Shown in pieces: positions 19,684-61,137 of a stretch of 64,000 nucleotides of DNA; position 1 is the stretch's first letter; each line of letters begins with the position of its first letter. Both the position numbers and the translations under genes were made by a program. The notes under the pieces were generated by a model. That model did no database searches, had not been told where the DNA came from, and saw only the letters and a program-made list of their open reading frames with translations. Source of the stretch: Acidobacteriota bacterium (GTDB taxonomy: Bacteria > Acidobacteriota > UBA6911 > RPQK01 > JAJDTT01); the NCBI GenBank assembly GCA_965263035.1, contig OZ253580.1, positions 4,000,001 to 4,064,000 of the forward strand, in the 5' to 3' direction.

Positions 19684-22600
19684 GTGCGAAATTCCAGCTT
19701 AGTTATCCTGCTCCTTATCAGTGTTTTGTGGACGGCTGATTCGGGCATAGCTCAGAGTCAGGTTGCGGTGTTGGAGGGGACGGTCCGGGAACTGGACGGC
19801 GGTCCTCTGACCCGCGTCGAGATCCGGGCCCGGCGGACGGAGACCAACGAACTCTTGGTCCTCGAAACCGACGCCTCCGGCCTCTACGGCTGGGACGGTC
19901 TGCCGGTGGGAGACTACGAAGTCCTGGCCTCCAAGGATGGCTTCGATTCGCAGCGAAGGATGCCGGTCCGGCTCCAGGTCGGACAGCGGGTCCGCCTCGA
20001 TTTTCGCCTCCGCACCAGCCCGCCGGGGGAGGCTTCCAAGATCGAGGGGGACCTGTCCCGGCTCACCGTCGAGCGGGACGACGTGGGCCAGCTCATCGAT
20101 CGCAAGCAGCTGCGAAACATGCCCTCCAAGGAACGCAACTTCACGGACCTGGTCACCCTGGCTCCGGGGGCTGTCTCGAGGGGGACGCGGCGCATTCAGG
20201 TCCTGGGGATGAGCTGGCGGGACAACCTGACCTATTTCGATGGGACCCTCATCACCGGCGGCGACGGGTCTACCAACATGACTCCCTCGTCGGAAGCCAT
20301 CCGGGAATTCGATGTCAAGACCGGCCTCTATTCGGCGCAGTACGGCATTCGCTCAGGAGGTCAGGTACTGTTGGTGAGCCGGCACGGCGGCAACCGTTTC
20401 CATGGCGGCCTCTTCTGGTTTCACCGCAACGACAATCTGGATGCGCGAAACTACTTCGAACAGCGGAAGGCGGAATTCAAACGGAATCAGATGGGGGGCA
20501 CTCTGGGGGGTCCCCTGATCCTGCCCGGTCTGAACCGGAATCGGGACAGCGCCTGGTTTTTCATCTCCTATCTGCATTACACGATTCGGGAGACGCTTCC
20601 CCTGACGGCCGTGGTGCCCACTCCGGAACAACGTGAGGGCCGGTTCGCCGGCGCCATCCTGGATCCGGTGACTGGGAACCCGTTTCCCGACAATCGAATT
20701 CCGGCCCATCGAATCGACCCGGTGACCCTGCAACTGCTCAGCTTCTACCCTCTTCCCAACACTGCGGGACCCCTCAACTTCACGAGTCCCGATTCCAAGC
20801 GGCCGCACGACAATCGGCAGGTCATCGCCCGCGTCGACCTGAGGACCTCTTCGTCCAGCAGTTGGGCATTCCGTTTCGCCGGTGATCGACGGCCCACGAC
20901 CCGGTCCAGAGTTTTCAGCGTCTTCACAACCCGGATGCCGCTCGGGAGCTACAGCCAAGCCATCACCAACACCCGGAGGCTCTCGGCAGGATCGGTCAAC
21001 TATTTCGGTCTGCACTGGTTCCGGAGACCCTACACGGCCGCGGTGGCCCGGCCCAAGACCGAGGCCGTGAGGCGGTTGGGAATCCCCCAACTGTTGGAGA
21101 CGGAGATCGACCGCGACGGCATTCCCCTGGTGTCGATCCAGGGATATACGGGCTTCGGGGATCTCCAGCGGATCGGACCGGTCATCGTAGGGAACTGGCA
21201 GGTGAAAGACGATCTGGCACTTCAACGCGGGCCCCACTCGTTCCAGATGGGCGTGGAGTTCCGGCAGAATTACAATTTCTTCGGCCTGCAAGGGCGGTCC
21301 CGCTTCGATTTCTTCGATCGTTACACCGGGAACGCGCTTGCCGACTTCCTCTTGGGTTACCCGTCCAGGACCCTGTTGGGAGGCGAGGAACGCCGGGGCA
21401 GTTATCACCAGAACAGCATCTACAGCTACCTGCAGGACCGTTGGCGCATCACGCCGGCGTTGGCTCTGACCCTGGGCCTCCGGTACGAATGGAGAAACCC
21501 GTGGCGGGACAAACGGGGATTCATGGGCAACTTCGATCCCGTCTCCGGAGAACTCTTTCCTCTTCTCCTGGACCTGGAACTGGCCCCGGGAGAAACGGGC
21601 CGCTTCCGTCCCAATTTTCCGCTGGTGGAGTGGCGGCCCTGGGAGGGACTGCTGCCCCGGCTGGGAATGGCTCTTCGGCTCGGCCAATCCTCGGTGCTCA
21701 ATCTGGGACTCGGGCTCTATTCCAATGAGACGGATCTCTCGATGATTCAAGGACTGGGGAAGAATCCCCGGCCCGGATCCCGGCTTCTGACCTTCAACGG
21801 CCCGCTGGAGAGTCCCGGGTTGACCCTCTCCGATCCCTTTCCTGCCGCGCTGGCCAGTTCAGCCGTTCCCACCTTGACGGGACACGTGACACCCACGCCG
21901 CTGCCCCGGACCCGTACCTGGGGACTGTCGCTGCAGCACCGCTGGACCCCCGACCTGATACTGGACATGGGCTACCAGAACTCGCGGACCGGCGGACGGT
22001 TGGAGACGGTCTCCTTCAACGACGCCGTACCCGGCAGCGGTGACCGGCAATCCCGGCGCCCCTTTCCGGAACTGCAATCGGTCCTGTTCACGGCGGCCTT
22101 TGCCGATGCCTGGTATCACAGCTCCTTCCTCCAGTTGGAAAAGAGGCCGGGTCCCGACGGGCTCCGCTTGCAGGGGTCCTTTTCCTGGGCGAGCCTGATC
22201 GATACGGGGGGCGGAGACCAGGGGAACCAGAGCGACTTGCTGCTTCGGTCCATCAACGTGTCGCCGGAGCTGAATCGAGGCGTATCGGACTCCCAGATCA
22301 AGAAGCGTTTACTCTTGTCCGGCAGCTACGACCTTCCCTTCGGTTCCAGAAGGCGATTCGTGCGGACCGGATGGGCGGGACGAATTCTGGGCGGCTGGTC
22401 GCTCCAGGGCATTTCCACCTTCCAGGACGGAGCCTGGTTCACCGTCTATTTGCCCGGTGACCCGCTCGACACCGGGTCCCATTATTCTCAGTGGCCCGAT
22501 CGCCTCCGTGAAGCCAATCTGCAGCCGTCGGAGCGGCATCCCCAGCGCTGGTTCGACACCGCCGCCTTCGCCCGGCCGGAGGGCTTTCGCTACGGAAACG

Positions 22601-22845
22601 GAGGGCGCAACACCATCGAGGGTCCCGGGGTCATCAACCTCGATGTCTCCCTCCGCCGGGTCTTGCAGGTGCGGGACGAGGAGACTCTCGAGGTGAGGCT
22701 GGAGGCGTTCAACAGCCTCAACCGCGCCAACTTCAACCCCAGGGTGCGGGACGGGATCACCCAGTTTGGAACCCCCGAATTCGGAGTCGTGGGCCGGGCC
22801 CTCGCCGGCCGCCAACTCCAGCTGGCGCTCAAGTACTCGTTCTAG
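19684..22845 (+). CDS. TonB-dependent receptor-like outer-membrane protein with carboxypeptidase-regulatory-like N-domain
   Basis: RNDNLDARNYF, KRNQMGGTLGGP, YLQDRWR..PALALTLGLRYE, RQLQLALKYSF C-terminus. Confidence 0.9.
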   Translation: MRNSSLVILLLISVLWTADSGIAQSQVAVLEGTVRELDGGPLTRVEIRARRTETNELLVLETDASGLYGWDGLPVGDYEVLASKDGFDSQRRMPVRLQVGQRVRLDFRLRTSPPGEASKIEGDLSRLTVERDDVGQLIDRKQLRNMPSKERNFTDLVTLAPGAVSRGTRRIQVLGMSWRDNLTYFDGTLITGGDGSTNMTPSSEAIREFDVKTGLYSAQYGIRSGGQVLLVSRHGGNRFHGGLFWFHRNDNLDARNYFEQRKAEFKRNQMGGTLGGPLILPGLNRNRDSAWFFISYLHYTIRETLPLTAVVPTPEQREGRFAGAILDPVTGNPFPDNRIPAHRIDPVTLQLLSFYPLPNTAGPLNFTSPDSKRPHDNRQVIARVDLRTSSSSSWAFRFAGDRRPTTRSRVFSVFTTRMPLGSYSQAITNTRRLSAGSVNYFGLHWFRRPYTAAVARPKTEAVRRLGIPQLLETEIDRDGIPLVSIQGYTGFGDLQRIGPVIVGNWQVKDDLALQRGPHSFQMGVEFRQNYNFFGLQGRSRFDFFDRYTGNALADFLLGYPSRTLLGGEERRGSYHQNSIYSYLQDRWRITPALALTLGLRYEWRNPWRDKRGFMGNFDPVSGELFPLLLDLELAPGETGRFRPNFPLVEWRPWEGLLPRLGMALRLGQSSVLNLGLGLYSNETDLSMIQGLGKNPRPGSRLLTFNGPLESPGLTLSDPFPAALASSAVPTLTGHVTPTPLPRTRTWGLSLQHRWTPDLILDMGYQNSRTGGRLETVSFNDAVPGSGDRQSRRPFPELQSVLFTAAFADAWYHSSFLQLEKRPGPDGLRLQGSFSWASLIDTGGGDQGNQSDLLLRSINVSPELNRGVSDSQIKKRLLLSGSYDLPFGSRRRFVRTGWAGRILGGWSLQGISTFQDGAWFTVYLPGDPLDTGSHYSQWPDRLREANLQPSERHPQRWFDTAAFARPEGFRYGNGGRNTIEGPGVINLDVSLRRVLQVRDEETLEVRLEAFNSLNRANFNPRVRDGITQFGTPEFGVVGRALAGRQLQLALKYSF

Positions 22846-22902
22846 GAGGGGACATTCTTGTCCCCCACAGTGGCAAGAATCGGGGGTTGAAAACCCCCGC
22901 TC
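22843..22902. repeat. REP/BIME-like palindrome pair, right arm interrupted by the intron
   Basis: GGGGACAttctTGTCCCC plus CGGGGGTTgaaAACCCCCGctc|cca; the same composite occurs inverted at 38122-38194. Confidence 0.7.
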
Positions 22903-23532
22903 GTGCGCCCGACATGGGCTGTATCTAAGGGATGAAAGATCCCAAGGGAGGTGATGGGACCAACCCTAGCCGAACCGCAAGGCGTAGCCGCGAGGTGAAG
23001 CTGAAGGAAGCGGAAGGCAAACCCACGACCGCAGGAACACGAACCGGCAGCGAGGCCGGGTGCGGGCGGTGAGCTGGCGAGCAACAGCGAAACCCGAACC
23101 CCATCCAGACGTACCAGGTAGAGCCGGGCGGCCCGGGGGGAAAGATGCAGCACCTTACTCGGGGAGATCTCAAGGGTGAGAGCCTTTGAGAAGTCAGCAG
23201 AGGTCATAGTAGCGAAGAAGCCGGATAATGCCGGTGGAGCGAAGGACCGAAGGAGTCGGACGGGCCCTATGGTGGACTCGTCAGCGGGATCGCAACTACC
23301 TCCGGAAACGGGGCGGGGGGAGGCCCCTCGGACCCGGCACGGAAGGCCCAAGGGTGGAACCCGTCAAGCCGGAAGGGCGGAGATCAAGTCCCAGCGGCGG
23401 CGAAAACCGGAAAGAAAGGCCCTTTACGAGGCTCGAAAGAGCCTCGAGTGACTCCAACCGCCGGATACTGAAAACGGTACGTCCGGTGGTGTGGGAGGGT
23501 GCAGGGGCGCAATCCCCTGCACTCGACCCGAT
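22903..23532 (+). mobile_element. ORF-less group IIC intron (630 nt)
   Basis: 5' GTGCG; CTTACTCGGGGAGATCT..GAGAAGTCAGCAGAGGTCATAGTAG..GAAGGACCGAA (DII/DIII); DV AACCGCCGGATAC..GTACGTCCGGTGGTGTGGGAGG; DVI hairpin ending CCCGAT; sits just after a stem-loop; no RT motifs. Confidence 0.9.
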
Positions 23533-23625
23533 CCATCCTTTTTCTTCCGGGATTTCGGCGGACCCCGGCCGGCGGGAAAGCCTTTCAGAGACAAGAGGGA
23601 GTTCGTGTGCAGCTACCTCACCGGG

Positions 23626-23904
23626 CTAAACCAATTCGATATGCACACGTCGTCCGACGATCGCCGCGGCCCGCTGGAGGCTGGAGAGTGTAATGTCGTC
23701 GTTCGGATCGAGCAGACGGTCCACCTGGGAACGGCTGGTTTTGAGCAGCTTGGCCATCTTGCTCTTAGAGAGATTCCTGCTCTTCATGGCGGCGGCTAGT
23801 TGCCACGCGACAACCTCTTTAATCGACTGCGTTTGAGCTTCATCGAAGGTGCCTTCTTCCCTGAGAAAATCATCAAGGCTCGATCCCATGTGTTGCTCGC
23901 TCAT
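23626..23904 (-). CDS. XRE/HTH antitoxin (HigA-like)
   Basis: GSSLDDFLREEG, SKSKMAKLLKTSRSQVDRLLDP, ITLSSLQRAA. Confidence 0.85.
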   Translation of the reverse strand: MSEQHMGSSLDDFLREEGTFDEAQTQSIKEVVAWQLAAAMKSRNLSKSKMAKLLKTSRSQVDRLLDPNDDITLSSLQRAAAIVGRRVHIELV

Positions 23905-24251
23905 CGTTCCAACTCCTTCCGGCGCTTGCGCGCGGTGGCCAGATCGGCTTTCGGCGTGGCTCGCGTTTTCTTGATGAACCCGTGCAACGCCACAAGGTGT
24001 TCACGGAAAAAACAGAGCAGCACTCGCGCCGTCCGGTTCGTTGGCAGGTCTGTCCGGACTTCCCAGAGACCTTCGCCCAACGGGCGACTCAGGGGCATAC
24101 CCACCGGCCAACGCCATTGCGCCCGCATCAGATCGTTCCCTATCGCTCGCCGCTCTTTCTCATCCAACCCTTTCAGCCCTTCCCTGACGGGTTCGCGGCC
24201 CGCACCAGTGCGGTAGAACACCAACGGGGTTTTCTGCGGCCTCTCTACCAT
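23901..24251 (-). CDS. RelE/ParE-superfamily toxin (HigB/Gp49-like)
   Basis: FYRTGAGREPVRE, WPVGMP, GLWEVR, LHGFIKKT; ATGA overlap with antitoxin. Confidence 0.85.
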   Translation of the reverse strand: MVERPQKTPLVFYRTGAGREPVREGLKGLDEKERRAIGNDLMRAQWRWPVGMPLSRPLGEGLWEVRTDLPTNRTARVLLCFFREHLVALHGFIKKTRATPKADLATARKRRKELER

Positions 24252-38121: not shown

Positions 38122-38194
38122 GTGGGAGCGGAGGCTTTTCAGCCGGCGGTTCCGGGTCGGCGTTGAAGAGGGGGACAAGACTGTCCTCCCTCCC
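38122..38194. repeat. REP/BIME-like palindrome pair
   Basis: GTGGGAGCGGAGGCTTTTCAGCC...GGGGACAagacTGTCCTCCCTCCC, an inverted homolog of 22843-22902. Confidence 0.6.
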
Positions 38195-45357: not shown

Positions 45358-45432
45358 TGGAGCCGGCGAAGGGAATTGAACCCCCAACCTACGCATTACG
45401 AATGCGCCGCTCTACCGTTGAGCTACGCCGGC
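45358..45432 (-). tRNA. tRNA-Thr(CGT)
   Basis: GCCGGCGTAGCTCAACGGTAGAGCGGCGCATT-CGT-AATGCGTAGGTTGGGGGTTCAATTCCCTTCGCCGGCTCCA cloverleaf with CCA. Confidence 0.95.
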
Positions 45433-61062: not shown

Positions 61063-61137
61063 AGGTGCGTAGCTCAGGGGGAGAGCGCTTCCTTGACGCG
61101 GAAGGGGTCAGCGGTTCAAATCCGCTCGCACCTACCA
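61063..61137 (+). tRNA. tRNA-Val(GAC)
   Basis: AGGTGCGTAGCTCAGGGGGAGAGCGCTTCCTT-GAC-GCGGAAGGGGTCAGCGGTTCAAATCCGCTCGCACCTACCA. Confidence 0.95.

Follow-up and report, generated by a model that had tools for sequence, protein, structure and literature searches.

Introduction

Group IIC introns home to sites after intrinsic terminators or, in one subset, to attC sites. Bacterial group II introns lacking an ORF are described as rare in the accessible part of PMC4424553. In the literature on group II introns and REPs that we searched, with most subscription papers and all supplements outside coverage, no IIC lineage specific for REP feet was described, and the only link was a table row in PMC1525189 that lists two of nine copies of the Pseudomonas putida group II intron as associated with REPs. 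Here we describe an ORF-less intron inserted at the foot of a REP, within a 64,000-nt stretch of DNA (the window). By every feature that could be tested here, the intron is a member of class C, and it lies outside both the terminator and the attC target classes.

Structure and boundaries of the intron

The features of the intron are as follows.

22903..23532, + strand: ORF-less group IIC intron, family A, 630 nt (Rfam matches, genome copies and an exact empty allele)
23079..23082, + strand: EBS1 = GAGC, located in the subdomain Id3 loop; partner is exon -1 to -4 (covariation over 48 introns)
23121..23121, + strand: EBS3 = G; partner is the +1 C of the 3′ exon (covariation over 84 introns)
23269..23451, + strand: 60-codon remnant of the RT ORF in DIV, running from an upstream ATG to the RT stop, net 1,218 nt shorter than in the RT copies
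23456..23492, + strand: domain V, with the CGC triad at 23459-23461
23493..23532, + strand: domain VI and 3′ end, with a 3-bp basal helix and the bulged branch A at 23526

The original prediction, made from the sequence alone, was of a complete group II ribozyme of 630 nt with the ends GTGCG and CCCGAT and a CGC triad in domain V, and it was borne out by Rfam, by ends shared among 24 copies and by an empty allele. The Infernal search that it proposed gave 81.4 bits for group-II-D1D4-3 and 47.2 bits for group-II-D1D4-1 (domains I-IV), both above the gathering cut-off, and 39 bits (E 5e-6) for Intron_gpII (domains V and VI), 1 bit below the cut-off of 40. The fold of the whole intron had a z-score of -3.08 against 20 shuffles, and the hallmarks of group II introns were present: a GUGYG 5′ end, an AY 3′ end, domains I-VI, a catalytic domain V and a bulged A in domain VI.

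In the public run X12, whose library type is not on record, a contig crosses the site minus exactly 630 nt (GT..AT), and run X14 holds a near-exact empty allele. Because these contigs carry the intron-free site, the boundaries of the intron are fixed and the insertion is polymorphic; independent support for the boundaries comes from the 24 copies in the genome, which have both ends in common. Among the contigs of two RNA runs, none bridged the occupied site and no spliced junction was found; X15 carries another allele at this locus, one that lacks the intron. Contig depth in two RNA libraries of one study was about 1,080-1,450 over the intron and 4-18 over the flanking genes, and in X12 (type not on record) 787 and 34, respectively; since these depths are summed over every copy and organism, and RT-copy alleles are found in the dominant RNA contigs, we dropped the excess as evidence of splicing.

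The 60-codon stub without RT motifs that had been noted in DIV is indeed present. It matched no NCBIfam family, and two deletions, of 2 nt and 1 nt, have put its middle part, including GRGEAP, out of the RT frame; a functional protein was ruled out on these grounds, and the stub is a frame-shifted remnant of the RT. The ORF deletion junction (about 23429-23448) is closed by a hairpin of eight perfect base pairs and a GAAA tetraloop; the last codons of the RT make up its right arm.

Copies in the genome and their reverse transcriptase

The search for other copies and for an RT-encoding parent, also suggested by the original prediction, was carried out with BLAST on the 6.2-Mb single-contig genome and revealed 24 copies of family A, 22 of them ORF-less and two with a class C RT. 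Nineteen ORF-less copies are intact (630-632 nt, 95-100% identical), and five of these, including the window copy, are identical and occupy at least four different REP stem variants. The remaining three are broken by insertions (5180457-5185638, 3923178-3925592 and 3067627-3070027), which, judged by motifs, look like elements with IS3-like ORFs in two cases and, in the third, like an IS21-type element within which a large serine recombinase is nested. A lone degraded copy, the outcome named beforehand as unfavourable to the prediction, was ruled out by the 19 intact ORF-less copies, the five identical ones and the two RT-encoding relatives.

Both full-length copies, at 2574643 and 531335, are 1,848 nt long and encode an intact RT/maturase (YADD; TIGR04416 with 363 bits; RVT_1 and GIIM), in which a domain search found no endonuclease (En) domain. 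The best PDB match of the RT was the GsI-IIC RT (E 2.5e-134), compared with 4e-35 for LtrA. A single DIV deletion junction is common to all 22 ORF-less copies. In domain I, the window copy is the same as the RT copy at 2574643, and a second ORF-less group is the same as the RT copy at 531335 (0/250 differences in each case), whereas the DIV remnants of the ORF-less copies differ from the RT copies at 37-45 of about 172 positions (37/172 for the window copy). All four combinations of domain I and DIV occur, so the ORF-less lineage is old and yet swaps ribozyme sequence with the RT copies; the haplotype pattern shows that the two kinds of copy trade this sequence by recombination. In congeners, the deletion junctions of the ORF-less forms differ from those in the genome of the window, which means that ORF loss recurred. 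A search of plasmid DNA with domain I gave short, distant matches only.

Together, these results confirmed 22903-23532 as a real, recently active ORF-less IIC intron.

The insertion site is the foot of a REP

The surroundings of the intron in the window are listed below.

19684..22845, + strand: TonB-dependent-receptor-like outer membrane protein gene (Pfam CarboxypepD_reg, OMP_b-brl_4 and weak Plug)
22845..22865, + strand: unoccupied partner REP (GGAG-G subtype) in an inverted doublet; its first G coincides with the final base of the upstream gene's TAG stop
22881..22902, - strand: target REP; 8-bp hairpin at 22881-22899, IBS1 GCTC at 22899-22902 on the + strand
23533..23533, + strand: IBS3 = C, which on the - strand is the G that opens the REP foot; C in 23/24 copies
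23626-23904, - strand: HTH_37 gene, convergent with the intron (domain match)
23901-24251, - strand: Gp49/DUF891 gene, convergent with the intron (domain match)
45361-45432, - strand: tRNA gene (Rfam)
61063-61134, + strand: tRNA gene (Rfam)

The gene upstream lies 57 nt from the intron and shares its strand, and the convergent pair downstream (23626-24251) is presumably a type II toxin-antitoxin. Read on the minus strand, the target REP consists of a GGAG foot and a stem, with the first G of the foot beyond the intron at 23533. The intron had been thought to interrupt a REP palindrome with homologous, uninterrupted repeats at 38122 and 54624. The REP is the target, but the site is the foot of the palindrome and not a position within the stem, and the two repeats, although related, are on the opposite strand and degenerate (about 22 of 28 aligned bases by hand alignment); neither meets the REP signature.

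In all 24 copies the 5′ exon contains a hairpin ending in CGCTC, which lies directly 5′ of the insertion site in 24/24 copies by inspection and in 23/24 by a perfect-stem test, and the 3′ exon begins with C in 23/24. On the other strand the target reads GGAG-C-stem-loop-stem, cut after the first G (G/GAG, the slash marking the insertion site). A signature search gave 478 hairpin-bearing copies of this GGAG-footed REP family, compared with 9-33 for nine control feet. The family is short, high-copy and mostly extragenic (213/255 eligible members intergenic by our own rough gene model), and one exact pattern of it was found in 7/8 genomes of the genus and in 0/33 other genomes searched. The GGAG foot is unlike the canonical GT[AG]G, whereas the targets of relatives have canonical GTAG or GTGG; the string GGAG does not occur in the main text of PMC3733652.

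Twenty-three of the 24 copies lie within the GGAG REP family, 22 by signature and one in a degenerate REP that the signature missed. The introns occupied 22/270 GGAG-C REPs and 0/208 GGAG-G REPs, 0/64 U-tailed hairpins and 1/401 non-REP sites with a hairpin and CGCTC/C. For intergenic sites only, again by our own rough gene model, the counts were 20/213 for REPs and 0/663 for the rest. When stem energy was matched (dG <= -6.3), 19/180 REP and 0/59 non-REP sites were occupied (P 0.005), with about 20 of the 59 being degenerate REPs. Because energy matching shrinks the contrast and a third of the controls are degenerate REPs, specificity for REPs is poorly separable from specificity for a strong hairpin with five nucleotides. 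The sole copy outside a REP (436206-436835) is antisense within a predicted gene, behind a chance hairpin that carries the five bases too. Two further palindromic repeats headed by GGAG, weak in their stems and present in 116 and 86 exact-pattern copies, were free of the intron. A loop subtype bias (18/96 vs 4/133 occupied) is left unexplained by a five-base model. The recognition rule thus looks like a strong hairpin plus the five bases GCTC/C and not the REP stem sequence, so that of the predicted targeting of the REP family the location stands, for 23/24 copies, while what is read appears to be the hairpin and the five foot bases.

Such a rule is also what an ordinary hairpin-targeting IIC intron would follow, one accepting any strong hairpin with the five bases, found in REPs as the commonest such sites after insertions elsewhere had been purged, and without any specialisation. 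The insertion in a non-REP hairpin within a gene agrees with it, as do the disuse of the weak-stemmed GGAG repeats and the fact that at least 180 of the 239 stability-matched intergenic sites are members of the REP family. We nevertheless consider this explanation unlikely as a full account, on the grounds of the relatives described below.

Replication strand and upstream genes

GC skew and dnaA placed the replication origin at about 2.873 Mb. In 20/24 copies the intron sense strand has the leading-strand sequence, which is that of the lagging-strand template, and for REPs only this orientation was found in 18/22 occupied and 108/248 unoccupied members (P 6e-4). A lagging-template bias is reported for En-less class C introns in the accessible text of PMC8919778. 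Considering the shared deletion, the identical domain I, the independent targets and this bias, we infer that the 630-nt intron is probably mobilised in trans.

Among occupied intergenic REPs the upstream gene was on the same strand in 11 and on the opposite strand in nine cases, and among unoccupied ones in 95 and 98, respectively. The direction of the upstream gene is thus indifferent, so the hairpin is not picked as the terminator of that gene. This indifference and the 0/64 U-tailed hairpins used ruled out intrinsic terminators as the target; the placement of other copies behind U-tailed terminators, which the original prediction had set against a REP target, was not found.

Guide covariation and phylogeny of the relatives

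Five congeners were searched, and four of them yielded 18 intron 5′ ends, 17 of which lay within the GGAG REP family. In ten, EBS1 could be read: GAGG with IBS1 CCTC in eight, all in the GGAG-G REP subtype (8/8 readable), and GAGC with GCTC in two, both in GGAG-C (2/2). In one genome (G008) both REP subtypes are used and a single EBS1 was readable.

For the phylogeny we took the best 80 of at least 588 GTDB loci and the best 80 of at least 580 metagenome loci, together with two RTs of the genome itself and a congener (162 proteins, 161 used, one being too short), and built trees with FastTree and fast IQ-TREE. In the FastTree tree of these best 80 plus best 80 loci, a branch of 0.42 with support 1.0 had all 38 introns with GTAG, GTGG or GGAG feet on one side and all 37 U-tailed ones on the other; as the clade was defined as the common ancestor of the foot-type leaves, the 38-vs-37 count is circular in part, though the branch is a long one in its own right. 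The foot-type side of this best-match sample had 55 leaves (38 foot-type, 9 with other feet, 2 with mis-called 5′ ends and 6 unreadable), and the other side 106 (37 U-tailed, 10 other and 59 unreadable). Canonical-type feet (GTAG, GTGG or GGAG) were therefore present in 38/47 readable targets of the clade within the sample, and non-canonical ones in 9/47. In a 51-row subset that included two integron-cassette introns and one relative, the foot-type clade had an SH-aLRT of 97.5 and the attC-type RTs formed a separate clade; with two distant intron RTs added as outgroups the SH-aLRT of the clade fell to 25-35. The two integron-cassette introns, which come from plasmids, have RTs 40-41% identical to that of the window family. 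Membership in IIC-attC was ruled out by the separate position of the attC-type RTs and by the REP-foot targets. According to the RT trees, the relatives, from Acidobacteriota and Verrucomicrobiota, form one clade, and the sampled terminator-type and attC-type IIC introns are outside it.

Over 48 introns of the clade, positions 177-180 paired with exon positions -1 to -4 in 92, 98, 98 and 88% Watson-Crick combinations, with two to four pair types each, which identified EBS1. Over 84 introns, position 219 was the top-ranked column for +1 (76% Watson-Crick, 93% with G-U) and was assigned as EBS3. No column exceeded 73% for exon -5 or -6, i.e. no EBS2-like pairing was seen by covariation. The traits of class C were thus found: the CGC triad, EBS1-IBS1 of about 4 bp with EBS3-IBS3, an En-less class C RT and a 5′ hairpin. 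As the covariation shows, EBS1 has changed in step with the REP foot variants of different bacteria.

Within the same best 80 plus best 80 loci, +1 was C in 42/47 introns inside the clade and in 21/83 outside, and the target recurred in the local flank of 14/42 clade loci and 0/41 outside; such clade-wide counts are descriptions and not tests, because kin are not independent. It is on these figures, and on the fit of EBS1 plus EBS3 to a canonical REP foot in 38/47 readable members from at least two phyla with switching among GGAG, GTAG and GTGG, that the explanation by an ordinary hairpin-targeting intron is silent; it describes the biochemistry.

Among the matches listed, the named hosts belonged to Acidobacteriota (Bryobacterales among them) and Verrucomicrobiota, apart from a single Bradymonadales contig on which the 5′ end could not be read. 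Four genomes, three from Bryobacterales and one from Verrucomicrobiota, gave 42 matches, 30 of which were examined; 28 had GTAG/GTGG-type feet and ten were ORF-less forms of 705-714 nt. One GTAG target had 285 and 171 copies in two of these genomes. For the GTGG targets of G041-G043, a search for a high-copy family with a degenerate GTGG-REP pattern gave 0 matches in five genomes. At seven loci (L244, L247, L255, L256, L253, L233 and L262) EBS1 and target had shifted together to GCTT, GCCT, GTAC or GTAA feet. Clade members with non-canonical feet possibly mark undescribed repeat families.

A second intron family at the same REP

The genome holds an unrelated ORF-less group II intron, family B (642-643 nt, AGC triad, seven copies), which we label IIB-type from its EBS1 plus EBS2 and its triad.

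L009:737-1379 (genome 2482159-2482801), - strand of L009: family B copy, with six more copies elsewhere

It sits on the foot strand within the loop of the REP that family A targets, with six copies in GGAG REPs and one in a GTAG variant, and all seven are oriented to the lagging template. EBS2 is GCTCC with GGAG feet and CCTAC with GTAG feet, and EBS1 follows the stem arm. One copy lies 11 nt behind a RAYT-like gene. Family B matches were found in 8/8 genomes of the genus, with RT-bearing forms at loci in G002 and G004; none of the eight RT matches in the genome of the window was a cognate RT of family B.

At locus L005 (3066875-3070027), one REP cluster contains both intron families about 110 nt apart. 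A third group II family, with an RT of 438 aa and about 1,960 nt long, is unrelated to the REP and present in four copies after TCTCA (near 984000, 5054000, 5538000 and 5842000), one of them interrupted. A lone DV-DVI match was seen at 340877.

RAYT-like genes and the spread of the introns

L008:1144-1830: RAYT-like Y1 transposase gene with REP doublets on both sides

At L008, a REP doublet near-identical to that of the window flanks this REP-associated tyrosine transposase-like gene on both sides. A further REP lies within the 5′ portion of the gene, and its reading frame contains an internal TAG stop at 1426-1428. With NF047646 (cut-off 80), the L008 protein scored 75.6 bits and the L009 protein 73.9 bits, both below the cut-off. 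RAYT-like genes were present in 5/5 hosts checked; in these five, beyond the genome of the window, RAYT-flanking REPs closely matched an intron target at one locus only (L335).

Passive spread, with REP-plus-intron units copied by RAYT or by recombination between REP arrays, would fit the presence of RAYT-like genes, one of them flanked by the same doublet, and the composite repeat of about 60 nt upstream of several copies, but it is largely refuted and highly improbable given identical introns in different REP variants with unrelated 3′ flanks, the exact empty allele of the window REP, one copy outside any REP, and an insertion that splits the foot which RAYTs reportedly recognise (accessible text of PMC6006769).

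Proposed mechanism and implications

With good confidence, we regard the element as a non-autonomous retroelement of class C (IIC) whose lineage is tuned to REP feet. The RT/maturase of one of the two full-length copies would help to splice the 630-nt RNA, and the RNP would then reverse-splice into the single-stranded lagging-strand template at the replication fork, as the strand bias and the En-less RT suggest. The target is a stable GC-rich DNA hairpin followed by GCTC/C, of which, as covariation shows, EBS1 pairs with four bases and EBS3 with one; in reverse complement these five bases read as the GGAG foot and one further base. Most intergenic sites of this kind are REP hairpins, which is why nearly all copies lie in REPs, with the foot split after its first G. 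In related bacteria, EBS1 has been altered to fit GTAG, GTGG or other feet. In this way one selfish element serves as the landing site of another.

More broadly, we think it likely that, taken as a whole, the following holds: a third class of IIC targets exists beside terminators and attC sites, used by a monophyletic, multi-phylum 'IIC-REP' lineage that reads the REP foot with five bases, re-tunes among GTAG, GTGG and GGAG and repeatedly spawns ORF-less derivatives, and a IIB-type lineage unrelated to it has come by convergence to use this REP as well, reading the foot via EBS2 but entering the loop on the opposite strand. If so, group II introns would share in REPs a niche supplied by RAYT, and a REP that receives an intron would be lost to RAYT. 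For REP biology, REPs represent a renewable landing niche for two unrelated intron lineages in one genome. The fit of a 4+1-base guide to the REP foot is a natural re-programming, and its variants could be used to separate hairpin geometry from sequence reading by the IIC RNP. The intron itself would offer a compact 630-nt ribozyme, putatively trans-mobilised. ORF-less copies exceed RT copies by 22 to 2 and arose several times, although such introns are called rare in bacteria (PMC4424553, accessible part).

Comparison with known systems

The comparisons with published systems refer to the accessible portions of the papers cited. Terminator-homing IIC introns (B.h.I1, O.i.I1, GsI-IIC and the E.r. 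intron of PDB 7UIM) resemble the window family in the CGC triad, the small ribozyme, the 4-nt EBS1 with EBS3, the En-less RT (best PDB matches), the upstream hairpin and the lagging-template bias (PMC8919778, PMC4424553). The window family differs from them in that it has no U-tract, its site is 3 nt from the stem at the REP foot, and it is indifferent to the direction of the upstream gene; the RTs are only about 45-55% identical and on opposite sides of a long branch. With IIC-attC introns (S.ma.I2, Kl.pn.I1 type) it has in common that a monophyletic IIC subset uses the hairpin of another mobile-DNA system on one defined strand (PMC3001079), whereas the clade is separate (40-41% RT identity) and the target is the REP foot and not attC.

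TeI3 of Thermosynechococcus elongatus (IIB1/CL) likewise has one ORF deletion that left remnants of both the N and the C terminus, and more ORF-less than full copies; it is mobilised in trans, as the window family probably is, and is retargeted by EBS changes (PMC2882425). It is, however, a IIB1 intron with EBS1 and EBS2, and it inserts at the starts of ORFs, in an IS200-family element and at intergenic sites rather than at REP feet (PMC2882425). Finally, the REP-targeting insertion sequences ISPpu9, ISPpu10, ISPa11 and ISPsy8 similarly use REPs as many-copy neutral landing sites (PMC1525189), but they are DNA transposons, unlike the intron described here.
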